DNA of 64,000 nucleotides, from positions 1,216,001-1,280,000 of the forward strand of contig CP000066.1 in NCBI GenBank assembly GCA_000002445.1, given 5' to 3'. Each line of letters begins with the position of its first letter. Positions within the stretch are counted from its first letter, which is position 1. Positions 1,516 through 32,830 of this stretch are shown here, piece by piece. The DNA is from Trypanosoma brucei (Eukaryota). The position numbers and the translations under genes are program-made. The notes beneath the pieces are model-generated. The model was not told the origin of the DNA, searched no databases, and worked only from the letters and a program-made list of their open reading frames with translations.

Positions 1516-3285
1516 CTATTCGAGGCGTGCCGGTGCAGTGTTGTTTCCGATGCGGACCTGCTCGCCACCGGCACCAGAGCTGCGCAGTAAGCGCGCCCTC
1601 TTGATTTCCTCGCGTTCGGCGGCAATCTTCACCTCCTCCTGCTTCGTCAGGTGCGAGCGGTACTCCACCATCTTGCTGCGGCGTGTAAGCACCTCCTCGT
1701 TGTTCTCGTCCACAGGGTGGTTGAACTCGATGCCAGCAGCGTCCAGAGCCTCCTCTGACTCCTTGAACTCCTCCAACGCCTTCGCCTGCTTCTCTTTCAG
1801 CATCGCCAGCTCCTCCTCTACGCCCTGGCGCAGCCTGTATAGCTCTTTCTTCATGTCGGCGTGCTTCTTCGCATTCGGGTCGAATGTTTCCACACAGAAC
1901 TCCAACTGGATGTGCGTTGTACGGATGTTCCGGTCAATCTCCTCCATCCGCTTCTCTTTCTTGTAGATAAGAGAACCCAACGTGAGGTACAGCATGCGGA
2001 AGTACTCCAAGTGCTCTTTATGAACATCCAAACGAAGGGCTGCAAGATCCTGGCTCGTTTTGTCGTGGCGGGCCTTCACCGCGGCACAGCCCTCCGACAC
2101 CAGCTCCTCCACCAGCCCGGTACAGCGGATCGCGAGGTCGCAGTTGTACACTGTCAGCTCGAGCAGTTTCTTGTGCTGCGAGGCAACCTCCAGGAATTGA
2201 GAGTACTCCACACGTCGCTTCTCCTCGCGGTCAATCTCCTCAATCCGCCGCTTGACCTCATCGAATCGCTCCGTGCCAAGCTTCTGCAACTGCCGCTCAA
2301 GGTCCTGGATCTTGTTCCACGTCTCCTCCTGCCTATCCTCGTTCTCTCGGATGTAGCGGTCGCTTTTCTCTTTGTTCGCAGCGTGGCGCTTCGTCGCCTC
2401 GGCATCCTCAAGGTCAGCCTTCTGGATCGCGTCGTGGATGTGCTTCAGATCTGTCTCACACCGCTGCTTCAGGCGACGCTTCGCATCCTTCATCTGACTC
2501 GTTTCCTGATTCGCCTGTTTCTGCACCTCATGGATTTTGCTGAAGGCCTGGTTCTCCTCCTCACATTTGCTGATCAAGCGGAATTTGTCCTGAATCAGAT
2601 CGATTAAGCGCTCCTGAAGCTGTACCTTCGTCCACATTTGCTCCTCGGCGACCTGCATCTCACCATCATGCATCGCAACGTTCTGGATCTCGTTCGTTTT
2701 TTCAAGCTGCGCCAACTGCGTCTTGATCTGGTCGTCAGTTGAGGCAAGCGCATTCTGGATTTGCGTTACGTTCATGATATCCTCCACTTGCTTCAATGTC
2801 TGTGTGGGGACCTGCGCCAACTGCGTTGCATCCAGCTGCGAGCGGCGAAGCTCCTCCTCAACCTTTTCAACCTTCGCGATGGCGTTGTCGATCATCTGCG
2901 TGAAGCTCACAACACGCGTCTTGTTGCGGTTCTGACGCAGGTCCTGAAGCACCTTTTTCATGGCAATAATGTCCATGAATTGTGCCTTGTCCTCAGGGCG
3001 GTAAAGCTCGCGTTGGCTCATCTCGAGTCCACACACGCGCATCAGCTTTGCGAGGTCGTACACCTCCGTTAGGTTCCATTTCGTACCGACGTCCACAGCG
3101 GCAACCAGCTCCTCAGCCTTCAGGTGGGCGCCGCGCAGCTTCTGCCTCTGTGTCTCGCTCCAGTCAGATACATGCAATTCCTGTACAAGTTCCTCATTCT
3201 CCAAACAGGCTGTCTTCAGCTTCAGGTTGTGGATCTTCTGCTTGCGCGCAGCCTCCAAACCAGTGGCATCGTCAACTGCGGCCAT
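1516..3285 (-). CDS. PFR1: Paraflagellar rod protein (69-73 kDa major PFR component); PFR1/PFR-C-like, 589 aa
   Basis: Full 589-aa ORF (MAAVDDATGLEAARKQKIHNLKLK...). It is highly charged with long coiled-coil heptads, and I recognise it as the major kinetoplastid PFR protein family. It sits in a tandem array, as is typical for PFR genes. PFR1 versus PFR2 assignment is by recollection of neighbouring genes and is uncertain. Confidence 0.9.
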   Translation of the reverse strand: MAAVDDATGLEAARKQKIHNLKLKTACLENEELVQELHVSDWSETQRQKLRGAHLKAEELVAAVDVGTKWNLTEVYDLAKLMRVCGLEMSQRELYRPEDKAQFMDIIAMKKVLQDLRQNRNKTRVVSFTQMIDNAIAKVEKVEEELRRSQLDATQLAQVPTQTLKQVEDIMNVTQIQNALASTDDQIKTQLAQLEKTNEIQNVAMHDGEMQVAEEQMWTKVQLQERLIDLIQDKFRLISKCEEENQAFSKIHEVQKQANQETSQMKDAKRRLKQRCETDLKHIHDAIQKADLEDAEATKRHAANKEKSDRYIRENEDRQEETWNKIQDLERQLQKLGTERFDEVKRRIEEIDREEKRRVEYSQFLEVASQHKKLLELTVYNCDLAIRCTGLVEELVSEGCAAVKARHDKTSQDLAALRLDVHKEHLEYFRMLYLTLGSLIYKKEKRMEEIDRNIRTTHIQLEFCVETFDPNAKKHADMKKELYRLRQGVEEELAMLKEKQAKALEEFKESEEALDAAGIEFNHPVDENNEEVLTRRSKMVEYRSHLTKQEEVKIAAEREEIKRARLLRSSGAGGEQVRIGNNTAPARLE

Positions 3286-3485
3286 GGTAGCACTCTTTTA
3301 TTAAGGATAATCGATTTCTTGTGTTGAAAGTTGTGTGATTTCTTGAAAACAGTTGTGTGAAGATTTGAATAAGTTTTATCAAAATTTTAGCGGTCTTTCG
3401 ATTAAGATATTGTTATAATTTTTAATTTTCGTTGTTTACGCATATTTATATTTTTTCTTTATTAATATATATATATATTATTGGT

Positions 3486-4655
3486 TTATAGGGATTTGTT
3501 TGTGTAGACAGCCCATTTTCCTCCGTCCTTTGAATAATGGTCCATTGGGTAATGTACGTCGTTCCAGTTTACGTTTCCCAAGGCTACTTCTGCCTCATAA
3601 GGTGACAATAGAGGCTTATCGAACGCGTATCCCCAGTCGATGGAAAGTCTTGGACATGCTACCTGAATATAGCAGTCAACATCCTGAATTCTTGCCAGTT
3701 TCTGAGGGAAGATTTCGGACATGAGAAAGAGGGTGACTGTTTTTCCTCGCTTCTCCGCAAGTTGCATTATGCGGTCTACCAACCGTGGGTTTCCCTGACG
3801 TCCTAACGTTCCCATAATAAGTGCAAAACTACTAGCGGCTTTTCCCAATTGGACCGCCTCGCGCCGCAGAGTTCTCATTTCGCTCGTGTTGTAGCTTTCT
3901 GTTGTCATTGTCTTCTTGTAAGGATCATATTGTAAAGCGTTTAATGTTGGGTGAGCAATTAGAAAAGCTTCAAGATGGAAACGTCCATCACCTACGTACA
4001 GCACAAGATCCACAGCCGTTGGGTCCAGTACTGGGCTCGTGCAACCCAACAACTCCCCCCTTGAGAGCGGCTTATTTTGTGGCACAACAACAGGCTGATG
4101 AAAGTGGTTCTCTAACATCTGAACCCCAGCGCGCATGGAAGAAACGAACTGAATCGTTGCAATGCAGGCCAGGCGAGTCTCTGGGGGGACAAGGGAGCGA
4201 ACGGTATCAACGAAATGTTGTACATCAATGTCAATTTCGACAAACACGTACATCATATTTTTTATCAGACAATCTTTTATCGATATAAGGCAACTGTGAC
4301 CATAGTGAATCAAGAAGTCACAACCCAACGCTAGGGCCGAATAATCGTCTACGCAGCAGGCGCCGTATGTAACATCACCCAGAATTACCATCTCAGCTCC
4401 CGTCTGTTCCTCGAGAATATCAGCAATTGGCGCAGCGAACATCAGAAGGCCCTCGGGAAACTGGAGGGCTACGCGCGTAGCGCCCTTTTCCCTTATGCGT
4501 CGGGCACACTTCTCAATCTCAAACCTGTAGTTACTTGGAAGACCCAACTCCGCCTCCATGGTGTCTATGGCCCTTAGTAAAGCGTTGAAGAGAAACGTGT
4601 GGAGAAGATTGGTGAAAGACGACACAGCGGTATCTTCATTGCAACATCGGCTCAC
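3486..4655 (-). CDS. Diphthamide biosynthesis protein, Dph1/Dph2 family (2-(3-amino-3-carboxypropyl)histidine synthase)
   Basis: The motifs ALQFPEGLL, GDVTYGACCVDD and CDFLIHYGHSCL are the conserved blocks (including the cysteine ligands) of the Dph1/Dph2 family. The ORF is 389 aa. Confidence 0.7.
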   Translation of the reverse strand: MSRCCNEDTAVSSFTNLLHTFLFNALLRAIDTMEAELGLPSNYRFEIEKCARRIREKGATRVALQFPEGLLMFAAPIADILEEQTGAEMVILGDVTYGACCVDDYSALALGCDFLIHYGHSCLISIKDCLIKNMMYVFVEIDIDVQHFVDTVRSLVPPETRLACIATIQFVSSMRAGVQMLENHFHQPVVVPQNKPLSRGELLGCTSPVLDPTAVDLVLYVGDGRFHLEAFLIAHPTLNALQYDPYKKTMTTESYNTSEMRTLRREAVQLGKAASSFALIMGTLGRQGNPRLVDRIMQLAEKRGKTVTLFLMSEIFPQKLARIQDVDCYIQVACPRLSIDWGYAFDKPLLSPYEAEVALGNVNWNDVHYPMDHYSKDGGKWAVYTNKSL

Positions 4656-11813: not shown

Positions 11814-13331
11814 CTAATATGCTCTGCCTCGGTCAAGATTTGGAGGCGACCACTCATTAACGATAAGTTCGGGGAAAACATTAGGTTTCAAAGTTGAAGT
11901 ACCAAGAAGCATATTGACACACTCTTGGAACCCTTGGGTTATTGCAGGGTAAGCTGTATGGAGCTGACTCAGGTTATAAATCGATTCGCGATTATGAATT
12001 GCCAATGAAGCCAACTCAATAATGCTGCTTGCATGCGGTCCAACAGCTCGCACACCAAGAACCTGCATTTTGTGATCATTTGTAACGATAAGCTTCACAA
12101 AACCGCTCGTATTGCCCATTGCGAGGGCCCGACCCACAAATTCATAACCGTACCTGGCCACCTTGTATGCTATGTGTTCCTTCCTGCATTGTTGCTCATT
12201 GCGACCTACAGCGGCCACCTCCTGATCAAGAAACATAATCGTCGACAGATTGTCCAGGCGTTGAATAAGTTCTCCCTCCGGATATGGACGATACATATGC
12301 TCAATACAGGAACGCGCTTCCAACTCCCCAACGTTAACAAGCGCCACCCTTGAGCCGACATCACCACACGCATAAATATGCTTGTGTGGAACAACGCAAT
12401 AAAACTGGTCACGCTGGATTCGACCCTGCTTCAACTCAACACCGATTTTGTCGAGTCCAATGCTACCCACATTTGGATCCCTTCCTATTGAAACCAACGC
12501 CTTGTCGACCACGTGGTCTGTTAGCCTGTTGTCTCTCAAATCACGCAGCGTGTAACGGAATTGGCCGCCCTCCACCTTGTTGCTTTGCAAAGCAGAATGG
12601 TGGTGAAAATTGACCATCTTTGCCTCCAGGAGCTTCTGAACGAAGAGAGCAACATCATCATCTTCCATTGGCAATATTCGATTAGACTTTTCAATAACAT
12701 TTACTTCGGTAAGTCCAAAGTTCGCAAATATCGATGCAAACTCACATCCTATAACGCCAGCGCCGATAATGACAATGCTTTTCGGAAATGGTTGAGTCAT
12801 TATATCATCGGAAGTGAAGACAACCTCACCGTCGGCAATTACGGAAGCATGTTTACGAGGTTGAGCGCCGCACGCAATGACAAAGTAGTCGGCCCGTACC
12901 TCCTCAATGCCTCCACCCAACAGTTTAACATCGACACTGTGAGGTGACGTAAATGACCCATGACCACATATAACGTCAACGCTAACCTTCTCAAGCTGAT
13001 GAAGAATCTGGCCGTGACGGAACTCTGCTGCGCAATCTATTGATTTCTTAATATTCGAAAAATCAATACATGGGAGAGCTTGACGGCACTTCATAAAACG
13101 ATTGGCGGTTTGGCCGTTCATAAGGCGGACGAATTTTGCCATTTCCCATAACGTCTTCGACTGTAGCGCACCGTTCCAAAGGTCAGCACCTCCAATCCGT
13201 GATGACTCGATTATGCAAGCCCTTTTTCTATAATCCACAGCCCGCAACGCGGCGGCCACTCCTGCAGGTCCTCCCCCTATGACACAAACATCCACATTTT
13301 TCGCCCAGCTGAGCCGGGTTTTAGCAAACAT
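11814..13331 (-). CDS. Dihydrolipoamide dehydrogenase-like FAD/NAD(P)-binding oxidoreductase lacking the redox-active CxxxxC disulfide
   Basis: It has an FAD-binding GxGxxG (DVCVIGGGPAGVAAAL), a second dinucleotide fold (IVIIGAGVIGCEFAS) and a C-terminal dimerisation domain. A LipDH-like H...P...E block (LHTAYPAITQGFQE) is present. Where LipDH has GGTCLNVGCIPSK, this protein has GGADLWNGALQSK, so both active-site cysteines are missing. Confidence 0.75.
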   Translation of the reverse strand: MFAKTRLSWAKNVDVCVIGGGPAGVAAALRAVDYRKRACIIESSRIGGADLWNGALQSKTLWEMAKFVRLMNGQTANRFMKCRQALPCIDFSNIKKSIDCAAEFRHGQILHQLEKVSVDVICGHGSFTSPHSVDVKLLGGGIEEVRADYFVIACGAQPRKHASVIADGEVVFTSDDIMTQPFPKSIVIIGAGVIGCEFASIFANFGLTEVNVIEKSNRILPMEDDDVALFVQKLLEAKMVNFHHHSALQSNKVEGGQFRYTLRDLRDNRLTDHVVDKALVSIGRDPNVGSIGLDKIGVELKQGRIQRDQFYCVVPHKHIYACGDVGSRVALVNVGELEARSCIEHMYRPYPEGELIQRLDNLSTIMFLDQEVAAVGRNEQQCRKEHIAYKVARYGYEFVGRALAMGNTSGFVKLIVTNDHKMQVLGVRAVGPHASSIIELASLAIHNRESIYNLSQLHTAYPAITQGFQECVNMLLGTSTLKPNVFPELIVNEWSPPNLDRGRAY

Positions 13332-14712
13332 TAAAATTATTCGGTAAACCTGATACGATAGCAGGGAAATAATTAGCGGAAGTAAGAGTTTTTCTCAGGC
13401 AGAAGCGACAGAAAGTTAAAATACGCAGCTGAGGGTTATCGTAGAGAGTCAGATGAGCACATATATTTATCTTATGGGAAGTCAAATGGCACACACTGAA
13501 GGAAAGCAGCAACACAAACACCCTATTATACCACTTCCTTCCTCTCAGCGGTGCTTCTAAAACCATTCCCCTTCACTCCCTCCTCCTAGAGCGGACGCGA
13601 CCAGGTGCAAGAGAACGAGAAGGAAAGGCGCAGCGGGCAGATCTGGCCATCCGGACGAGAACACACTAAGCATCCTGACTGAAAACGGCGGTGCTAAGCG
13701 ACAGTGAAGGTGAAAAAAAGAACCACAACAGCAGTGTTACAGCAGACAGCGACACGCATGCAAATTTCGCTTTGCAAGTCAAAGGTAATGGGGAGCGAGG
13801 GGAGTTGGCAAGCGTCCACCGGTAGTGTGGAGCGCGAGGCCCGCGCAGTTCGCCCCACCCTCCATTAACCAGGCCAAACGAGCCAAACAAATCGAAAGGG
13901 GGAAAAGCACGACCACTCCTGAGAGCGACAATATTGCACCCAACCCTTCACACACATCCGTACGGAACCGGAGGCTGCATGAAATTCCGCCTACGGTCAG
14001 CCCAGCATCGGGAATATGGCTCAGCACCGCGCACCCAGCGGTCCCGCCCAGCCCCGCAATAATTCTAAGCAGCGGTCACCGCCCCGACGCCCCCATCACA
14101 TACTTCACCGTCCGAAAGCAAGGAAGCGGCCAGACGTACGTTCAGGCGGACGGGCGGCAACATAGCGCACAAAACCCGGGAGGGTAGTTCAACCGAAGGA
14201 AGCAGCTTCCTCCTCCCCCACCGGAGTCGACGTCAGCATCAAACGAGGAGGAAAACAAAGGAAGACCGGCACCATGCGGCCCCTCGAAAAGAGATATGTG
14301 CGGCGGGTGGTCAAAGCACCCGCGCAAGGAACATAATACTGCAAAGGGCTTTTAGCCCTTTAACGGGCGAGCACAGCCGGTCGGGTATATGACGACGGGC
14401 AAGGGGGCGGCGGATCTGTCCCTAAGAAACGCCGAAGCCATCTTTCACACTCCAGTGCCGCAACAACGCGGTTCCCCCGGGAGTGGGTGGGGCCCGTTTC
14501 TCAGCATGATTTTCCCTCGCCCGAACCCCACTTCGGCTCACTGACGAAAGCCTTTCCGCGCACAGACACCAACAAGAAGCACGACGCGGCAGAAAATCGT
14601 CACAGACGACCACGTAACGGTCTAGCGAACCACTTACACAGTTCCCTTCTTCGAGGGGTAATCCCTTCAGAGAGCCCCTCCTCAGCGGATATCACATAAC
14701 CAAGAGCCAGTT

Positions 14713-14858
14713 CAGTGTCTCACGCCCTTGTTTCCTGGGGGGAAAAAAGCATTGGGAGGGGGCGCGCTACTCGACTTCCCCGGCGCTGGTGGTGGTGACA
14801 AAGCGGTGCCCCCTCCCAATGCTTTTTTCCCCCCAGGAAACAAGGGCGTGAGACACTG
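14713..14858. repeat. Perfect 51-bp inverted repeat (arms 14713-14763 and 14808-14858) with 44-bp spacer
   Basis: The reverse complement of 14713-14763 (cagtgtctcacgcccttgtttcctggggggaaaaaagcattgggagggggc) is identical to 14808-14858. It lies in the ORF-free tract. Confidence 0.9.
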
Positions 14859-17296
14859 AGGTGAAGGAGAACCTTCTGGATGCCCCTCCGAAGTGACCTG
14901 CTAACGACCCCACCGAATAACCGCCTACAGACCCCACTAATAAGCAACTGCCGCACCTTTTCGTTTGGTAACTGTTGATGCGGAGAGTGCGTTTCAACCC
15001 CAACTCCATTTGGCCTGAGGAAGCGGAAAGCATCATTTTGAAGAGGAGAGAAATGTTGACAAGCGCTGTCGTTCTAAGAGGGCAGGCCTAAATACAGTCA
15101 CTATCGAAGGGAGGGGTCACCTGCATAGAGGGCAAAAAACAAATTTGTTCAAGGAAAACCAACCAATCCGAACGATTTTTGATTCTCAAGGGTAAAAAAT
15201 CATCGATACAGCATCACGGATGATATCTAAATTCTTCCTTCGCGCCGTAAAGGGAACCCATTTGGCATCTCTACTGACATTTTCACTGTGTATTCAAGTC
15301 ATCCGTTATTTGTTTATTTATTTTAGAAACGATACACACTTACAAGCGGAGCGCGGCGTCACGTTTTCACCTTAACTCAGCAAGTGCAGGCCCTCTACAA
15401 CCGGAGGTTTGGAAGGGGGCGTTTCGTTTCGTTTGTGCACACCATCCTGCAGGAAAGCATGCCCCTCCACCCTTTCGTACAAAGGTCCGCGCACCACATA
15501 CAGCAAAACCAAGGGTCGAGCCCCCTCCTCTCCCCAACACACACGTAACATTTCAACATGTCGCTGGAAAATGATGCCCAAGGGCAATATATTGGAGGAG
15601 ATCCATTCCTACCAGTTGGATCACCCGAACCCTAACAAAAGCCGGCCACCTTTCTGGGGAATCAGCCCTTGAGTCACCCTCGGCGGCGGATGCAGGTTCC
15701 CTCGAACGTCAGGGAGGAAATCTGCAAAAAAAAAATGTAGTTTTACTCCACAGATCTCTGAAGGTTGATCAAACACACCGCTGTTGAGTTTTCTTTCTGT
15801 TATACAAATGCCCATCGTTGGTGCCATAACTTTCGCCTCCCCAAAATGGAGTGCGCTCTGATGCCACAGGCGTTCTGAGTTCCGCATCCCTAGCAACGGC
15901 TCCCAACCTATTTTCCGCGTGAGGATGGGCACAATTTCAAGGTCACGCAGAGCATACGCCCATAGTGCCTCTTTATTCTGTTTTCAAGAACACTGCGTTC
16001 GCTGGGGGCTATTACCCACATTAGCTCACCCAGTGGTCTTTGTTCTTCGTCCTTCACTTGAAAAATATCACTCTGGGAGCGCCTTTCCATTTGAGGCGTG
16101 TAGTTGTGTTAATGACCGGTTTATCCGGGACTGTGAAAGAACAGGCTTTGCGATCATGATGAGGGAGGCTAAGATTGGTGTTGATGGGCGGAAAATTCCC
16201 TCGCGATGCCGGCCACCTCATCATGGGTCTAGGGTCCAGTACACCATCTCATCGGGTTAAGCCAAGAGCCAGCAGCGTTCTTCTCCAGGGTAACACTGCT
16301 CTGCCCGGCTGCGGCATCATACAGCACAGGGATCAGCAGCGTCTTGCTGGGACACCGCTTTTCATTTGTCGGTCCCTGGGTGTGTGCCAGTGTGCCATCA
16401 GCGGCAGAACGGATGGTGTTTTCCTTGAAAAAGCTGTGCGTCTATTTTTCCGCAACCGTTTCAGCACTGCGATGGAAAGAATATTGAAAAAAAGTGTTTA
16501 ACAACAAGCTTAAGAGGAAAACTCAGTGATGAACAGTGTTGGCGATGGTGGAATTGTCTGTGCTCGTTGATTGTTGTGTGCATTGTGCGAGTGATAAAAG
16601 CGTGTTTTATCTACATGTTTCTTCCGTGCGTTCGTTTCCTTCAATATTATGCACTCTAGCCTTTAGGCGAAAGCCTAAGCATCCGCGCAGTTTCCGCACA
16701 TACCGCAATTTACACTCGTTATTTTTGGTTGTGTACTCGTTGCCGACGGCTGGAAACTCTGAGTGTGAAGAAATCGGGAATCTCTGTGGGGCCCGTGCTC
16801 TTGGACGTAATCTCACCGTTTGTGAAAAGAGCGCCTTCATTGCGGAGATCGGGTGGCCTAGTGGAATGAAAATGGTCAACACGTACCACTTCCCCCACAC
16901 AGGGACAAAAACGTGGTAGTTCCAGAGAGCGATCTGGGCAACAAATATAACCTTGCACAAGGAAGCTCTTTTTCACGGCATGCGCAACTTTTTTCTTTGT
17001 TTGAAGGATGCGGGTGCAAAGTTCGAACAGGTACGTCAAAGGCTTATGCGGGATGTCACTCTGTCCTTCGAAGGACCTTTCTCGTTCCGATACCAGTGCG
17101 CCAAAAACGAAACTTACGCGGAAACGCCTCCACGCGCAAACCTCTTCTCGCGGCGCCAGCTGTTGGGGAGACGGCAACGTCAACTAAGTAAAGGCCTCAA
17201 ACCCGACGGCAGCGGAACGAAAACAGGAACCGACGCCACGCATTCGGACGCCAGCCCCGGCGCTGCTGACCCGTCTCTTTTGAAGCAACACAAATC

Positions 17297-17425
17297 AAAA
17301 ATTTAAATAACAAGAACTTTGTCACGAGGTTAATTTTTCTCTCCGGAGCGGTTGTTGATTTAGAGCAGTTGCCTGAAGTCATGGTTAAGGGGTTCGGTTC
17401 CCCGGTCATCTGTCGTTTTTTCCAT
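17297..17425. ncRNA. Candidate small-RNA/tRNA-like element ~100 bp upstream of tRNA-Ser(AGA); strand and identity unresolved
   Basis: On the plus strand, 17389-17421 reads GGGG-TTCGGTT-CCCC-GGTCATCTGTCG-TTTTTT, i.e. a T-arm-like hairpin, an acceptor-like 3' strand and a T6 terminator. I could not fold an anticodon arm, so it is not a canonical tRNA. Read on the minus strand, the same interval starts ~100 bp divergent from the tRNA 5' end, the spacing kinetoplastids use for tRNA-dependent pol III small-RNA genes. It ends at an Sm-site-like AAAUUUUUG (plus-strand A-run 17297-17301). Confidence 0.25.
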
Positions 17426-17523
17426 AAAGCGCTTTTCTCAGAGCCTTCGGCCGGCGTCGTGTAGCATACATAAATATAAGTACGTCAAATTTTAGTAAAT
17501 TTAGTAAAGAGGTCGGCGCACGT

Positions 17524-17604
17524 GTCACCATACCCAAGTGGTTACGGGGACTGACTAGAAATCAGTTGCGATCTCGCGCGCAGGTTCGAATCCTGCTGGT
17601 GACG
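17524..17604 (+). tRNA. tRNA-Ser (anticodon AGA), type II with long variable arm
   Basis: The cloverleaf was folded by hand. The acceptor is GTCACCA/TGGTGAC plus discriminator G. The anticodon stem is ACTGA/TCAGT with loop CTAGAAA. The variable arm is long. The T-arm is GCAGG-TTCGAAT-CCTGC. A T6 run follows at 17605-17610. Confidence 0.88.
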
Positions 17605-17610
17605 TTTTTT
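17605..17610 (+). terminator. Pol III T-run terminator (TTTTTT) after tRNA-Ser(AGA)
   Basis: A T6 run lies immediately 3' of the tRNA. Confidence 0.7.
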
Positions 17611-17809
17611 CGTCAATTCCCCGTGTTCCGCTGCTTTTGTCCAGTCAACTTTTTTCCGTAACAACAGCGATTGGGAATTGGGAAACGGTACGCGCACCAC
17701 AGGCCAGTTGTGACCACCAAGCAACACAGAGACGCCGCGGAGGACGGACAGCGTTGGGCAACACCGCTCCGAAGGGTGAAAACAATCAGCCGATTTGGGT
17801 GCGAAAAAG

Positions 17810-17891
17810 TGACAAGAGTGGGGTTTGAACCCACGCCTACGAATAGAAGAGAACTTGAGTCTCCCGCCTTAGACCACTCGGCCATCTTGCC
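17810..17891 (-). tRNA. tRNA-Leu (anticodon CAA), type II
   Basis: The minus-strand sequence is GGCAAGATGGCCGAGTGGTCTAAGGCGGGAGACTCAAGTTCTCTTCTATTCGTAGGCGTGGGTTCAAACCCCACTCTTGTCA. The anticodon loop is CTCAAGT, the variable arm is long, and the T-loop is TTCAAAC. It is followed on the minus strand by C+T5 (plus-strand A-run 17804-17808). Confidence 0.88.
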
Positions 17892-17950
17892 ATCGACGGC
17901 CACAACAGATTTGTTTTAGACACTTTTTTTATTTATGCAATGCCAAAAAC

Positions 17951-18031
17951 CGTCACCAGCAGGATTCGAACCTGCGCGCGAGATCGCAACTGATTTCGAG
18001 TCAGTCCCCGTAACCACTTGGGTATGGTGAC
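17951..18031 (-). tRNA. tRNA-Ser (anticodon CGA), type II; identical to the Ser(AGA) gene except position 34
   Basis: The minus-strand sequence equals the 17524-17604 tRNA with a single change in the anticodon loop (CTCGAAA vs CTAGAAA). A T5 run follows on the minus strand (plus-strand A-run 17945-17949). Confidence 0.88.
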
Positions 18032-18112
18032 ACCGCCTCGCCACCACCTCTCAAATGCGTTACCCTTGCACAAGCGATCGATGCCGTGATTTTTTTGTGC
18101 GTTTCTGTGCGA

Positions 18113-18360
18113 TGCGGAGTGTGAAGCGGTTGGTGGTGGTTTGCCGTCCTCCAACGGACGGCCGCCAGTCACTTGTCGTATGAGCCGATAAAGCTGCGCC
18201 GGAGTTTTCCTGGAAGTCCTCTCTGAACAATATAACTGTGGGATGTGGACGCAGAAATTTGTAGGGCTTAAAGTCACGGCGTCAAGTTGCAGTGCCAGTC
18301 GTTGATGGGCGGGCCACCATCGGATAAGAAGGGTGGGGGACACTACGCGCCACAGAACAG
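18113..18360 (+). ncRNA. Candidate structured GC-rich RNA element divergently positioned ~95-100 bp from tRNA-Ser(CGA) 5' end
   Basis: The hairpin GCCGUCC-UCCAAC-GGACGGC lies at 18142-18161. A long-range complement pairs GGUUGGUGGUGG (18129-18140) with CCACCAUCGG (18314-18323). A TTTT run is at 18204-18207. I looked for the SRP-RNA helix-8 AGCAG/GNRA signature and did not find it, so the identity is unknown. Confidence 0.2.
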
Positions 18361-21300
18361 CACTATGAGACTATAAAAATGAGGTAAAGCCGCACATGAG
18401 CTTGTTGTAGTCACTCAGTTATGTGGTGGAGCGTCTCACGAGTCGGCGCGGTGGCCATGGCAAATGGAAAGGACATTGGATCATCACAGTACCATTACAA
18501 GTGCACATCTTTCGGTGCTTTGTTTTGGAGTTAAAGAAGATGGAAGAGTCGGAAAATTTTCTTCAATTTAACACCACTAACTCAGTGCTCTTGAGCTTCA
18601 CTATCAACAGTTTCCGTTTGTGGCTCGTGTGTCCCAAGTGTCCACAAGGTTTGTACGCCTCGGGCCTCTCGGAACAGTAACGTGCCTGCGGATTGTGGAG
18701 AAAAAGTGGATAGTAAAATTAATGAATGTAGGGAGAACACGCCCTATGTACTGATTTTTTGTGAGCTTTTTTCTCGTGTTAGAGACTCACCCGCTCAAGT
18801 TACTGCATTCTTCAGGCTATGGGGAAGGCCATATTCAAGAAAATTGGCTGTGTGAACAGCAGCTGCCTCTGAATAGAGCAGGTGAATCACCGATTGGGCC
18901 TCCATGACTTTCCCACGGTGGGGAACATAAGAATTCCACATATTAATGTCCACGGAGCCGTGCAGATAGGCGTTTTTATGTTCCTAAAAACCTACTAGCG
19001 TCAACCGTGTTGGCACAACAGCGTTGAAGCCGTCTCTAGAGTCTCCGCTGTGGGGAGTAATCGGCGTTTACTTTCCTGTGAGATGCCCGTTCACCTCCAT
19101 TATTTCACGACATCAAAAAAAAAAACGTTCCAAACTTGGTTATGTGGATACTTAATGTTCAAGGGGTCAAGTACACGGGTCGAAAGTTTCATCGTTTCAA
19201 AAAATTTATTACCAGCAATGTTAGGTGTGTATTGAACTGTTTTTTCCGGGAAAAGTTGGTAAATGAATCTGTCATAGGGAAACTTGCCACCTTCACCAGC
19301 CCATTCTGAACAACAGCCCCCAGCATGTAGATTTTGAAATACGCATTGTTTTCCACGGGATTCGCACCGGTTTCTTCTGCGCGCCTTTGTGTTTTCGCTT
19401 ATCGCTCTGAAAGTCACATTTTTTTGTGGAAACATCTGCATGGTTCCCCTCGATTATTTCTTCGGTCCGGGCGCCGCATGTGCGTGAATTTCTGTCGATG
19501 TGTGTCCCAACAGTTGGATTGCCTCTTCAGTCTTTACTGAACCTTGTTGACTTCTACGTGCGCTGCGTGGGTTGCCTGCAGCGTGCTTAGGGTCATTTTA
19601 CCTTGGGATGCTCTCTGTTCCCGTGCCGAAGTGACGGCTGTAGTTGAACCGTTGTAATGAGCTTAAATGATCCTTTGCTGCGTGTCCAAAATGCTCAAGT
19701 ACTATGGACGCCCCACCCCCTGGGATGAAGTTGCCACACCAAGAGCACCGGCCACGATTACTCGTGCGGATGAAGCCGCGGACTTCCCACCGATTTGAAT
19801 GTCACCGTACTTATGGTCGTGTTGGGCGCCGTTGGCGTCTTACAAGCCACCAGCACTTTGACTCATGATGTTCCAGCGTCTTGTGTTTCATTTCCCGGAG
19901 TACTGGTTTTATCTGCTCTACTATACCAAATGTATGCGGTTGCTGCGATCCACGTGAGAAAATACGAACTGCGGTGCGCACTGCGTAAGTCTGTCTAGTC
20001 AAAGCTTTTATTTGGCCCTTTTCGCCGCATTTTCCGCTTGTAAAAAAAGTTGATCTCGGCACACTTTGTTTTACTTTCTCTAAATATTGCTCCAGTCAAT
20101 ATGTTTGGAGTCTTCTGCAGCCTCTTTCCCTATTTTTGGTGCCTTTGAATATTCTCGTCCAGCTAGTTTTTCTCTTTTTTTATTTTCTCTGGCTAGTCTC
20201 GCCTTTTCTCCTTCATAAATTAACTTATATAATTGGCGTTCTGCAGTTGCAAGTTTGTTGGTACTCTCGTTTATTCCGCTGCTTTTCTGGAGTATATCTT
20301 CCCTCCATCCTCATTTTTCCTACGTTCTCGTTTTTGCTGGACCACTGTAGTTGAACGCCGTTGTAATTTTCCTAACATCTGTTGAAACCCATTGAAACTT
20401 CATTGTGATCTCCACTCTCATATAGGTTGTGAAATTTGACAAGTCTTCTAAACATCGACTCACTGCCTTCGTTCGTGTCGGTTTCACGGGTATTGTGTCG
20501 CTTCAGTGGTGCAACCTGGCACTTGTGCGTGCGTGTCTGCTAAAAAATTTGTTTTCTCAACACAGAGAAGTGCTGGCATGGACTAGGTGCGTGGTGAAAC
20601 TACTAACCTACGTTGTTTTATTTTTTTTTGTTAAGTTATAAAAGGAAATCTGGAAAATTTGAAAGGTTATAAGATTCTGGCACAGTTGCCTCCTTTGTGT
20701 CTCCGATGTGCTGGTCAAGTCCTCCATGACTGTGCTCAACTGAATCAAGTATCATCTCTAAGTTTAGAAACGTCGCTACGATTCAAGAAAATGGCTTTCC
20801 CCCAGTTTGATTGCTTTTGCCGCTTCGGAAATGAAGTTGGTGGTGGCCGTCCATGGTCGAAACCTTTACTGGCGTATGCGTTTCTGCCCTTCCAAGCAGT
20901 CAAGTCGCTGAGCTACCACTCACCCCCTATTACGTTGCACACTCCATAGTAATGTCAGGGCCCATATTCCAGATGAGAGGGAAAACCGAGCGTGTTCATC
21001 AATTCTGTTCCTTAGTGATTGGGGCCGGCAGATGATTGTCGGCCTCCGGGGGGAGCAGGCATCAAAGTCATCGGTTCTCGGGGATGAAAAGGAACATCAC
21101 CTTACCCTTCTGCAATCGTGAGGGCACCTTTTCGGTGGTCTGTAGGCCAGCACAGTCATCAAGCACGCTCTACAAAAATAACCCGGACACAATCCCACAT
21201 GGATCGCAATGGGGAGCTAGGGAGCTCCCACAGCCGAAAAGATTCGCTTTGGCAAAGCAACTTCACAGTTACGACGTCAATTTCTGAATTTTGCGAGGAT

Positions 21301-23475
21301 TACGTGTGCCCAAAGAAGCGGAATACAAAAATGAAATATTAACAGAAGACCATAGAAATTGCACGGCCCTGAAAATGAAGACAGAACCAATACTTGAAAC
21401 GGGTAGCGACGGTATGCTTTGGGCCCCGCGATGTACAGGGAGGTATGAAAGAGCATCGGCTAAATCGATGCCGGGCAGGGGCTATAAGTCACATTTCTGC
21501 CAACATATCCCTAAAAAGCGGAAGCGGCCACAAGGCGAGCGCCGGATTCGCTCCGCCCAACAGTTAGCGCATTGATGACCGGTGCCGATATGAACTGGAG
21601 CAGTCGGGAGTTAGCTCCATACACACAGCCAGGCGAAGCAGGCTGCCTCGTCCAGGGGCATTTGGAAGGGAAACTGAGGAGAGCCAACTCTGGGAAGGCC
21701 GCAATAAAGCCTCGAAGGCGTAACTGGTCCTCACAGCTGGGCGTGGCCACATACGGAGGGTGCTGGGTATTAAACTGGAACTCGAAATTGAACTGAATTA
21801 GCGACAGCAATAGAATCATATTCTAAGTAGGGATGTGCATGAATGCTGATAAAGTCATTTTTTTTGTACTTTCACCACACACTACTCGCAGAATAAGAAC
21901 GATTGAATAGCTTGCCAACAAACACAGGTGCACGGGGTAAAGAATGGCTCGAGCGTGACCCAAAGAAAATAGGAATATAAAGGAGGTTACGCTATTGTCT
22001 CCGGTAAGAATGGAAACACAGACGACAACACCAAAAACAGATACACTGGCGCAACACTTCTTGAGCAAAGAGCTGAAAATCTTCTAAATGGAATGACGTT
22101 ATGTGACAATGTAAGCGGAAAAGTAGCGGAGAAACATAAGGTGAAAAGTCTAATCAAAGGAAAGACACAGAGTGATGGAGAGGAAAAACATTTAAGGCAA
22201 GAAACACAGAAACAGCAGCCATCAACTCAACCAATCAGGAATTCCCACCGAGGTTACAAAACACGCAAGAAATAATTGTCACCAGGCCATTGCCGATAAA
22301 GGGACGGCTGCAGCTGTAATATCACCGGGGGCTGAGGAAGTAAGGACATATTATTTCCATGGAACAAGCAAACTAACGCGCAGTTGCTGAGCAAAAGGTG
22401 TGGCAACGGAAGGAGGACCCAGAGCATTTATTGGCATTTGGGGAAACGGTTAAAGAGCGGAAGGACATTGGCGGCACTCGCCAACTTACTGTCCCCACGA
22501 TTAACTCTAAAAATAGGTCCTGCGAAAGTAAAGGAAGGGATGCTATGATGGACGTGGAAACACAGGGCGAAATTAACCAAAGGCGTAGAACCAACCATCA
22601 GGTCAACGTTTTCACACTGTCGGACAAAGAAAAATTATGAAATGGAGCGAAAACCCAACGAGGGCAACCTCACTTCAAAACAGTGCTCGGCGTGGTAGAC
22701 GGGGATTGCCACCGCAGTGGCGGAAAAGTTGAAAAGGAATGGCGAAGGGAAGCGGTACCCAATGTCTATGGCCAAAAAAAATATGAGAGGTCCTTGCCAA
22801 AGCGTGCCTCCCTCCGGGTAGTTCCGGCGAACTCACTGGAAAGCCAACAGCACGGTCGCGAATAGGGGCGCCCCGCACGTAACCGGGGGCTGTGTAGTGG
22901 GACTGAGAATTTTGTGGCAACTCCTCCTCCTCCTCCTACCTTTTACTGAGGTTCAAGTAACTTTTCCCTTTCCCCAGGAAATTGCAGGTCGAATTTTTGG
23001 CATTTCAGATGATGCGAATTATCGCTGTGAGTCGCTTGTGGCATCAGCAGTAAGAGCCTGGAAACGCCTCCGGGTCGCGTTTAAACCGCCCGGCTTCGAA
23101 CTAGCAGTGTGCGACGCACTGGGCCGGTGCCGTTGCGCACACAAAGAGGGCGGCTGCATTGTCAGCGGCTTATTCCAATATTGCGTGAGGGGCATTTCAG
23201 AAACTGCTGAACTTGTGGCGTTTGAGCATTTTTTCATTTAGAAAGGGAGAAAAGATGAGATATCTGCCATGCTACTTTTCGGATGAAGTAAGTTTGAGCG
23301 TTGCCGCAGCCCTGATAATGCGGCGGTGGGAGTGGTAGTGGCTAGATGATTTTAAATGTTACAGTGATTGGGTGGATGCTGTGGGTGAATTTTAAGTAGG
23401 AAAATGCGACCACTCAGAGGCTGCCTCTCCATTTGAGTTGCTGGTGTTTCGCGTTCGCGCAGGATATCCAATGGG

Positions 23476-24639
23476 TCATACGTCCTTCACTGCCCCTACC
23501 TCCGTCCTGAGTGATTGATGTCGCAAAGCGACATCCTCCACCTTGTAGAACTCCTTCTGCACAAGGTTGTCAAGCGCGTCGGCCACCAGGGCTTTCTGCG
23601 ACAACTGGGACCTGAGTTTCTTGCATTCCATGTCCGCCTGGCAGCTTATACGACTGATGCGTGCGCTAAGGTCGGCCCGACCATTATGTAGTTGCTCGAC
23701 ATCTGAAGATATTACCTCCACGTGTTGTTTTACACGCTGAAGGTTTCGAGTAACCCACTGTCTTGTCGTTTCTATTTCTTCCATGAGCAATGCCCGCGCC
23801 TGCTTCGCCTCGTTACCTAAAGTCACCACGGTGCCCGCAGTCTTGTCAACCTTTTGCTCCAGCGAACTGAGCGACTGGGTAATACCGTCAATTTTTTCTT
23901 GAAGCGGTGGAACCCGTGAATAATCCCGTCCTACTGACATCTCCAAATCCCTTAAAGAGCTTTCCACGAGCCGTAATTTTTCACGAAGGGTATCTTGCGC
24001 CTCTTGCCTTGACAAGTCCTTCTGCTCCGCCTCGCCCCACAGGGATGCGATCCGCTCCTCCACATCTCTTCTCACGTCACTCACTGTGTTTTCTATGCGT
24101 TGTTTCGTTCGTGCCGCTTGCTCTTCTCCGTCGGCTCGGATCTTCGCCAGATCACTCAAAAATGCTTGGTGGGCATCTTCTAATGTTTCCTGTACCTTGG
24201 AAATGATGAATTGTTTGAATGTTTCCATATCCTCTAACCTTGCACAGGCCTGCTCTAACCGTTTTAACCGCGACAGCAGCTCCTGCTGCTGAAACCTGAT
24301 GTCGGCCTCCTTTTCCTCTTGGATTCCTTGGGCTAGTTTCACCAACTTCGTAAGGTTCACCATTTTTTCATCGAACATACACACGCGGGCGGAGAGCTCC
24401 TCTACTCGATCAAGCAACTGCTGAACAGAGAAGGCGCCCTTCAACATCCACTCCACTCGTGACTCGGCGGCTGAGTCCACCTGTGCCGACCTTAAGGGCT
24501 CTTGAGGAGATACACTTTCCTTCTTTCGTGGCCGCAAATATATGTCAGTGTAGTCCATCGCTCGCACTGCGTCGGACAATCGTCTTGTTATGCTTTCCAA
24601 AAATAACAAAAGTAATGTAAAAGAGATGTGGGAGAGCAT
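23476..24639 (-). CDS. Coiled-coil protein, hypothetical (first gene downstream of the ORF-free tract on the far side)
   Basis: 387-aa ORF with continuous heptad-like charged repeats (EELSARV...LEQACARLEDMETFKQ...). The hydrophobic N-terminal 27 residues may be ORF extension, and the real start may be Met28 at 24558. Confidence 0.55.
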   Translation of the reverse strand: MLSHISFTLLLLFLESITRRLSDAVRAMDYTDIYLRPRKKESVSPQEPLRSAQVDSAAESRVEWMLKGAFSVQQLLDRVEELSARVCMFDEKMVNLTKLVKLAQGIQEEKEADIRFQQQELLSRLKRLEQACARLEDMETFKQFIISKVQETLEDAHQAFLSDLAKIRADGEEQAARTKQRIENTVSDVRRDVEERIASLWGEAEQKDLSRQEAQDTLREKLRLVESSLRDLEMSVGRDYSRVPPLQEKIDGITQSLSSLEQKVDKTAGTVVTLGNEAKQARALLMEEIETTRQWVTRNLQRVKQHVEVISSDVEQLHNGRADLSARISRISCQADMECKKLRSQLSQKALVADALDNLVQKEFYKVEDVALRHQSLRTEVGAVKDV

Positions 24640-32361: not shown

Positions 32362-32830
32362 TCGTTAAACGTCTTCACATTAAATATGCGTTTCCCTAAA
32401 ACGGACGAAACTAACAAACTTGGCGTCTTTAGTTTTATATTATTGTTGCTTTTGTTGTTGTTATTATTATTATTACTGTTGTTGCTGTGGTTCGACCCCC
32501 TCCCCCCGAAAAAAAAACAAAAAAGAGGTTAAAACACTTATTCAATTCCGTGAGTGGTACAACGGGCGTGCGTGAAGAAGGGGAGCGAAGGGAGATGGAG
32601 GGCGATGCGGTGATGAGTTCCACTGCAACACGGTACGGCTCTAAAGTGAGAAGAAGGAGAGAATTTGCATATTTAAAGTAACGCAAAAACACCAGCAACA
32701 TATGTGAAGCAACAAGTTACAATGAGACATCCATGCGGAGATCAATACACTCAACAACAACACGTTATGAGGGGCTGGGAAGAGAAACTAAGCGGTACCA
32801 AACCACTTCCGACTGTAGGACTCACACATA

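Follow-up and report, generated by a model that had tools for sequence, protein, structure and literature searches.

In trypanosomes, the A and B boxes of tRNA genes serve as remote promoters for all snRNAs, and clusters of tRNA genes mark sites at which polymerase II terminates and re-initiates transcription. Yeast contains so-called ETC ('extra TFIIIC') sites or partial tRNA genes, which consist of an isolated B box with a poor A box or none. Such sites can bind TFIIIC without giving rise to a stable RNA and are often located at boundaries of chromatin or of transcription units.

In trypanosomatids, tRNA-like elements were described upstream of U2 and U4 genes, namely of T. brucei U2, L. collosoma U4 and L. 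major U2 (PMC4950102). These elements are weakly transcribed (89–109 nt) and do not form a cloverleaf; their boxes drive the divergent snRNA genes (PMC4950102). Genuine tRNA genes likewise form divergent pairs with snRNA and 7SL genes (Nakaar et al. 1994, summarised in PMC4950102 and PMC3273796). The distance between the snRNA start and box A is 104–106 bp in trypanosomatids (PMC4950102), and the gap between U6 and tRNA-Thr of T. brucei measures 97 bp. The tRNA genes of the Tritryps carry T-runs 0–7 nt past the gene end (PMC2695483). Hypervariable 5' flanks were reported as a signature of active polymerase III genes (PMC6130373), and neither TFIIIC nor polymerase III has been mapped genome-wide by ChIP-seq in T. 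brucei (PMC10781861).

Here we describe an unannotated, degenerate tRNA-like element within a tRNA cluster on chromosome 3 of T. brucei, which is probably the remnant of a decayed tRNA gene.

Results

The window, i.e. the whole stretch of 64,000 nucleotides that was analysed, corresponds to positions 1,216,001–1,280,000 of chromosome 3 of T. brucei TREU927; position 17524 of the window is position 1,233,524 of the chromosome. All large ORFs of the window are located on the minus strand. The neighbouring proteins show about 100% identity to proteins of T. brucei, among them the product of the ORF at 11814–13331, which corresponds to dihydrolipoamide dehydrogenase and whose protein cluster has TREU927 among its members. 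A tRNA cluster lies inside an ORF-free gap of 10 kb, which itself is situated within a single-strand polycistron. ARAGORN and Rfam identified in this cluster tRNA-Ser(AGA) (Tb927.3.4393; 17524–17604, plus strand), tRNA-Leu(CAA) (17810–17891, minus strand) and tRNA-Ser(CGA) (17951–18031, minus strand). The coordinates of tRNA-Ser(AGA) agree with Additional file 1 of PMC2695483, in which the three tRNAs of the cluster appear as Tb927.3.4393/4396/4399 at positions 1,233,524–1,234,031 of chromosome 3. This Tritryp inventory lists no further polymerase III gene at the locus, and our literature search found no report of a transcript from it.

Upstream of tRNA-Ser(AGA), we found a unit of about 57–68 nt (17354–17421, plus strand), compared to 72–82 nt for a tRNA. 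Its components follow each other in the register of a tRNA: an acceptor strand, box A, a short middle part, a T arm with box B, the second acceptor strand and a terminator. The acceptor-like 5' strand GTTGATT (17354–17360, plus strand), which is invariant in three T. brucei subspecies, pairs at six of seven positions with the acceptor-like 3' strand GGTCATC (17404–17410, plus strand), which directly follows the T stem as in a tRNA. The successive positions of this stem are G-C, a U·U mismatch, U-A, G-C, A-U, U·G and U·G. Directly after GTTGATT, a box-A-like 12-mer TAGAGCAGTTGC (17361–17372, plus strand) was identified, which is identical at 8 of 12 positions to the box A TAGCTCAGATGG of L. major tRNA-Ala quoted in PMC4950102. 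The gap between its end at 17372 and the B box starting at 17391 is only 18–19 nt. The T-arm-like hairpin GGGG/TTCGGTT/CCCC (17389–17403, plus strand) has a stem of 4 bp, is invariant in the three subspecies and includes the B-box-like GGTTCGGTTCC (17391–17401, plus strand). This motif agrees with the B-box consensus GGTTCGANNCC at 8 of the 9 specified positions, the exception being a G at the position of A58. The unit ends with a trailer TGTCG and a terminator-type T6 run (17416–17421, plus strand), which starts 5 nt after the acceptor-like strand, a distance within the Tritryp tRNA range of 0–7 nt. In addition, TGTCGTTTTTTC of the element resembles the end TGACGTTTTTTC of tRNA-Ser (repeat family D6).

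The T-arm hairpin, the G at the A58 position and the T6 run had been noted in a preliminary description of the locus and can all be read directly in the sequence. The divergent position relative to the tRNA gene that was assigned to the module there has to be corrected. The distance of about 100 bp is accurate, as 102 bp separate the element from tRNA-Ser(AGA), but both are located on the plus strand with the element upstream. The module is therefore arranged in tandem with the tRNA, and only a hypothetical gene on the minus strand would be divergent. It had also been stated that no anticodon stem could be folded. An imperfect anticodon-arm-like hairpin CCTGAA/GTCATGG/TTAAGG does exist at 17372–17390 (plus strand), with one G·A mismatch, a 2-nt overlap with the T stem and no room for a variable region; this arm was found by ARAGORN in its relaxed mitochondrial mode only.

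The frequency of a composite motif, in which a B-box-like motif is accompanied by two extra stem pairs and by a T5 within 25 nt, was compared to the expectation from dinucleotide shuffles. This composite occurs four times in the window, in the three true tRNAs and in the element, versus 0.055 occurrences expected; the element is thus its sole copy outside tRNAs. The B-box-like motif alone was found five times in the window versus 1.95 expected, with four of the five matches located within the 600-bp cluster. The second match outside tRNAs, at 32489, is part of a pyrimidine-rich tract of simple sequence without stem or terminator and was taken as a chance occurrence.

Models of tRNAs and of known RNA families did not recognise the element. 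With default settings, ARAGORN called only the three neighbouring tRNAs in the window, and its relaxed mitochondrial mode forced a fold of 66 nt on the element. The Rfam tRNA model RF00005 showed no match on the element, neither at the gathering threshold nor at E ≤ 10. Rfam searches of both strands, which covered the whole window at the gathering threshold and segments of 1.4 kb and 161 nt at E ≤ 10, returned just the three tRNAs plus one meaningless 8-bit SNORD15 fragment. The interval singled out in the preliminary description for such a search matched no family on either strand, even at E ≤ 10 on the 161 nt. In five orthologous loci, Rfam detected tRNAs only. Inspection of both strands by eye revealed no consistent box arrangement of C/D or H/ACA snoRNAs, and neither target-site duplications flanking the element nor a repeat family were found.

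Six candidate transcripts from both strands were folded and compared to shuffled sequences. The minimum-free-energy folds of the plus-strand element showed no cloverleaf (z about 0), and none of the six candidates was superior to the shuffles except for a small hairpin on the minus strand (z = −1.9). A collinear local alignment of the element with tRNA-Ser(AGA) was marginal, with 17 of 500 shuffles scoring as high (p about 0.03), and this score is partly due to the B box and the T-run. A covariance model based on 9 tRNA-Ser genes gave no match on the element with filters switched off. Descent from the neighbouring tRNA-Ser was rejected, and both results count against the interpretation as a relic.

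The invariant residues U8 and A58 of tRNAs are not preserved in the element: A58 is replaced by G (TTCGGTT), and position 17361, which corresponds to U8, is a G in T. b. gambiense. With D stem, proper anticodon arm, variable region and A58 lost, and U8 lost in one subspecies, the element cannot act as a tRNA.

For comparison among species, syntenic loci were taken via the flanking dihydrolipoamide dehydrogenase gene from T. vivax, T. cruzi (two loci), T. melophagium and T. rangeli, and from the subspecies T. b. equiperdum and T. b. gambiense. The tRNA-Ser(AGA) genes of T. brucei, T. vivax, T. cruzi and T. melophagium are identical, and that of T. rangeli deviates from them at 4 of 81 positions. 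The element occurs in both T. b. gambiense and T. b. equiperdum. It is absent from T. vivax, T. cruzi, T. melophagium and T. rangeli, both in the 450 nt that precede tRNA-Ser(AGA) and in all scanned loci; hence, the conservation in related species that the preliminary description had considered was not found. The fetched loci of these four species also contain no B-box-like motifs outside genuine tRNAs. To call the element 'T. brucei-specific' would really mean that it is younger than the split from T. vivax.

Among the three subspecies, eight sites are variable between 17326 and 17383, namely 17326, 17345, 17346, 17348, 17349, 17361, 17362 and 17383. The exchange T>G at 17361 in T. b. gambiense affects the U8 position of the element, and A>G at 17362 in T. 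b. equiperdum the second position of box A; the exchange G>A at 17383 in T. b. gambiense is located inside the anticodon-arm-like hairpin. Positions 17384–17472, which comprise the B box, the T arm, the 3' strand, the T6 run and 50 nt beyond, are invariant in the three subspecies. The structures predicted for either strand differ between the subspecies. The eight variable sites, box A and U8 included, suggest that the 5' half is under relaxed constraint, which supports the interpretation as a remnant. The invariant stretch 17384–17472 between hypervariable flanks could reflect a constrained function, which a mere relic leaves unexplained.

The three-genome comparison also revealed a substitution hot-spot at 17209–17383, which comprises the upstream flank and the 5' half of the element. 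Within these 175 nt, 23 sites differ between TREU927, DAL972 and T. b. equiperdum. This is about 8 times the local background of ~1.4% in the same ORF-free stretch and the maximum over the 21 kb compared. The hot-spot recurs in three lineages, each with private changes, and includes no indels. The immediate flanks of the three true tRNAs are substitution-enriched as well. The hot-spot is wider than the tRNA-flank effect described in PMC6130373, and its spectrum of about 11 transitions to 12 transversions differs from the transition-rich pattern observed there. The hot-spot suggests that polymerase III loci, or this polycistron boundary, may be prone to mutation in trypanosomes.

An element that is still alive would provide another explanation of the locus, which we consider rather unlikely. 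Its invariant B box and T arm would recruit TFIIIC and polymerase III, which would fire in both directions, and the extreme density of substitutions in the hot-spot would be the mutational footprint of this activity. The products would be a short tRNA-like transcript of the plus strand and a hairpin RNA of ~37 nt transcribed from the minus strand from 17256. The polymerase III activity would be unconstrained and located at the boundary where polymerase II stops and restarts on the polycistron. If true, the element would represent the first description from a trypanosome of an 'orphan' tRNA-like promoter for polymerase III, or of an ETC-like site.

It is unlikely that the element acts as a working extragenic promoter of the U2/U4 type which drives a unit on the minus strand from about 17256, with a 27-nt hairpin plus U-run (~37 nt) or a longer read-through RNA as the first product. 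Position 17256 is located 105 bp upstream of the box A of the element, and a small hairpin GCUGGCGUCCGAAUGCGUGGCGUCGGU (17229–17255, minus strand), the one with z = −1.9, starts at 17255 and precedes UCCUGUUUU. This hairpin is kept in the three subspecies despite five substitutions, of which two are wobble/Watson-Crick exchanges in the stem and three fall into loop or bulge. The densest cluster of substitutions in the hot-spot, 8 in 17259–17286, is located just upstream of the putative start, as a hypervariable 5' flank would be, and the B box of the element is invariant in the three subspecies. However, the hairpin is marginal, as 13 of 200 shuffles fold as well. The start at 17256 was picked by the 104-bp rule, which makes its agreement with this rule partly circular and the hairpin evidence weak and post hoc. 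The unit showed no Rfam match, and a read-through candidate of 157 nt folded like shuffled sequence (z = +0.1). No recognisable gene is located 104 bp upstream of the box A of the element, and 17256 belongs to the part of the locus with the highest variability, where the substitution spectrum (~11 transitions : 12 transversions) is atypical for transcription-associated mutagenesis. The element itself also argues against such a promoter. The spacing of 18–19 nt between its boxes is outside the 30–44 nt of trypanosomatid tRNA-like promoters (PMC4950102), its box A is polymorphic, and A58 of its B box is a G.

The preliminary description had alternatively proposed an unannotated small RNA. On the minus strand, this would be a polymerase III gene of ~128 nt which extends from about 17425 to 17298 and uses boxes A and B of the divergent tRNA-Ser(AGA) as its promoter, the canonical arrangement in trypanosomatids. 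An snRNA-like gene of this kind fits the locus only by geometry and appears distinctly improbable. The box A of tRNA-Ser starts at 17531, which places the position 104–105 bp upstream at 17425–17426, beside a purine start, in agreement with both the 104–106 bp rule and the 97-bp gap between U6 and tRNA-Thr. The three subspecies show no variation in the 5' 42 nt of the candidate or in the 47 nt that precede it. The first T-run of at least four on the minus strand is a T5 at 17301–17297, and the candidate would either end there or carry an Sm site. The motif in question, AATTTTTGA (17303–17295, minus strand), was read from the sequence and can equally be regarded as the T5 terminator of the hypothetical transcript. 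As had been described, an Sm-site-like motif is present on the minus strand; its AAUUUUUGA fits RATTTTTGR, but this pattern occurs five times in the window versus 4.9 expected by chance and is therefore uninformative, and flanking stems are absent.

Further results oppose the small RNA gene on the minus strand. At E ≤ 10, Rfam gave no match to the 128-nt candidate on either strand, and the candidate folded worse than the shuffles (z = +1.2). Its predicted structures differ between the T. brucei subspecies, and eight polymorphic sites are located in its 3' two-thirds. The four other Trypanosoma species contain no counterpart beside the conserved tRNA-Ser(AGA), and the distance between the tRNA and the next start codon is only 430 bp in T. 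cruzi. Moreover, the 5' part of the candidate is the antisense of the tRNA-like B box and terminator, for which the reading on the plus strand is simpler. Without a family match, a fold better than shuffled sequence or a counterpart in the four species, the proposal of an snRNA-type RNA could not be upheld.

A chance resemblance, in which ordinary intergenic sequence with a GC hairpin and a T-run merely looks like a tRNA gene, is very improbable. About two B-box-like 11-mers per 64 kb are expected by chance, pairing at six of seven acceptor-like positions is not rare if many registers are allowed, and folding of the element gave no structure signal. Yet the full composite, with an expectation of 0.055 per window, was found 102 bp from a true tRNA gene, and the acceptor strand is followed by box A, the T arm, the 3' strand and the terminator in the order and register of a tRNA.

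That the element is a copy of a known tRNA-related RNA, either vault RNA (TBsRNA-10) or the SRP-associated sRNA-76, can practically be dismissed: the vault RNA gene has a similar layout, in which box A is close to the 5' end and box B to the 3' end and a T-run forms the terminus, but both published vtRNA primers (PMC12547018, Table S1) are absent from the window with 3 mismatches allowed, and vtRNA is longer than 100 nt (pseudouridine at position 100), whereas the T5 at 17334–17338 limits the plus-strand unit to ~80 nt or less; sRNA-76 (Tb927.4.4663) is a tRNA-like RNA in tandem with a tRNA gene, but it is set apart by its locus on chromosome 4 (1,287,302–1,287,374; the element is on chromosome 3) and by its score as tRNA (Sec) in tRNAscan-SE, whereas no tRNA model detects the element.

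Discussion

The decayed tRNA gene at 17354–17421 thus remains the probable explanation of the locus. The term tRNA relic, already used in the preliminary description, is supported by the B box in a T-arm hairpin, the acceptor-like stem, the box-A-like 12-mer and the well-placed terminator, together with the failure of the element in the tests for a tRNA or a known RNA family. According to this interpretation, a tRNA gene would once have been located in tandem upstream of tRNA-Ser(AGA) in the polymerase III cluster of chromosome 3 and would then have decayed. The losses in this process would comprise the D stem and the variable region, a proper anticodon arm and A58, and in one subspecies also U8. 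The type-2 polymerase III signals are retained at the DNA level: the B box is close to the consensus, box A is weaker, and the T6 run is placed at the right distance.

Judging from these signals, TFIIIC may still bind the B box of the element, and polymerase III may produce from it a short, unstable transcript of ~65–75 nt. If bound, the element would simply add TFIIIC and polymerase III occupancy to the tRNA cluster which interrupts the polymerase II polycistron. We see a modest chance that some activity as a promoter or boundary persists in the element.

As a relic, the element would mainly correct the annotation of the locus, as it represents a fourth, decayed polymerase III unit of the cluster which is missing from published inventories. 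It would also imply that trypanosome tRNA clusters turn over via local duplication and decay. If the B box is still occupied, this orphan TFIIIC site would offer a natural test case for the roles of such sites as remote promoters and as polymerase II boundaries.

The comparison with known systems delimits the relic further. Like the divergent pairs of tRNA genes with snRNA or 7SL genes, the locus shows a distance of 104–105 bp between the box A of tRNA-Ser(AGA) and 17425–17426; unlike in these pairs, no family is detectable at 17425–17426 and nothing is conserved there in other species. With the tRNA-like elements of U2 and U4 genes, the element has in common the boxes A and B, its own T-run, the lack of a cloverleaf, the location within a cluster of polymerase III genes and an adjoining genuine tRNA. 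It differs from them in the distance between the boxes (18 nt versus 30–44 nt), in its polymorphic box A and U8 and in the G in place of A58. Furthermore, the box A of the U2/U4 elements is located 104–106 bp from the snRNA start, whereas no recognisable partner gene is present here, and the U2/U4 elements are conserved in 19 trypanosomatids (PMC4950102), whereas the present element was not found outside T. brucei. As spacing, partner gene and conservation all fail, we regard it as an orphan tRNA-derived polymerase III element and not as a promoter of the U2/U4 type.

The tRNA pseudogenes and 'undetermined' genes of the Tritryps (PMC2695483) are likewise degenerate, located in a tRNA cluster and equipped with remnants of internal promoters. 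These pseudogenes still score in tRNAscan-SE, whereas the element is below the detection of ARAGORN and of the Rfam tRNA model. Compared to the ETC sites of yeast, the element retains a terminator and an acceptor-like stem, and it is therefore clearly derived from a gene.

Genomic setting of the tRNA cluster

The tRNA cluster of the window is enclosed by a 10-kb ORF-free gap (13300–23500) within a single-strand polycistron. Strongly skewed stretches of this gap show AT skews of +0.35 (13.5–14.5 kb), −0.39 (20.0–20.5 kb) and +0.38 (22.0–22.5 kb). This organisation is consistent with a zone of polymerase II termination and re-initiation at the polymerase III cluster.

Within the cluster, an 89-nt inverted repeat of 98% identity (17522–17610 and 17945–18033) corresponds to tRNA-Ser(AGA) and tRNA-Ser(CGA), including a few flanking bases. 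Since the sole difference between the two genes is the first anticodon base, it is probable that one isoacceptor was derived from the other by duplication or that gene conversion maintains their likeness.

Variation among T. brucei subspecies

Comparison of TREU927 with T. b. gambiense and T. b. equiperdum revealed a substitution hot-spot at 17209–17383, which comprises 23 variable sites in 175 nt and represents the peak substitution density of the 21 kb compared. The background variability of the ORF-free stretch containing it is ~1.4%. Each of the three lineages carries private changes in the hot-spot, the spectrum of which consists of ~11 transitions and 12 transversions, and an invariant block (17384–17472) directly adjoins it.

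A 27-nt hairpin rich in G·U pairs was observed on the minus strand at 17229–17255, followed by UCCUGUUUU. Its start is separated by 105 bp from the box-A-like motif (17361–17372) of the tRNA-like element, and its folding energy compared with shuffled sequence gave a z value of −1.9. The hairpin is kept in all three subspecies despite five substitutions, two of which are wobble/Watson–Crick exchanges in the stem, while the other three fall into the loop or a bulge.

Within tRNA genes, the only substitution among the three subspecies is a C>T exchange at position 6 of tRNA-Ser(CGA) in the T. b. equiperdum assembly (window position 18026). This position belongs to the 5′ half of the acceptor stem, in which the exchange creates a U·G pair.

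B-box-like matches outside tRNA genes

Besides the tRNA-like element (17354–17421, plus strand), the window contains a single B-box-like match outside tRNA genes, GGTTCGACCCC at 32489–32499, located at the end of an intergenic simple-sequence tract, (TTG/TTA)n, with an ORF on either side. Neither a stem nor a T-run is present at this position, and the match was judged to be due to chance.

At the syntenic T. rangeli locus, a T-arm-like hairpin at ~4187–4215 (plus strand) contains a perfect B box, CAAGTGGGGTTCGATCCCCTGCTTGG, and is located inside a called ORF of 445 aa (2897–4234) without a Pfam match. This hairpin could have arisen by chance, or it could be a fragment derived from a tRNA that a doubtful gene call includes or overlaps.

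The tRNA cluster in other Trypanosoma species

In T. vivax, T. cruzi, T. melophagium and T. rangeli, tRNA-Ser(AGA) stays beside the dihydrolipoamide dehydrogenase gene and the rest of the cluster is rearranged. In T. cruzi tRNA-Ser(AGA) is the sole tRNA within 10 kb, with the next start codon 430 bp away. T. melophagium carries an additional tRNA-Thr(AGT) beside tRNA-Ser(AGA), and in T. vivax tRNA-Leu(CAA) immediately adjoins it, ~7.6 kb from the dihydrolipoamide dehydrogenase gene.
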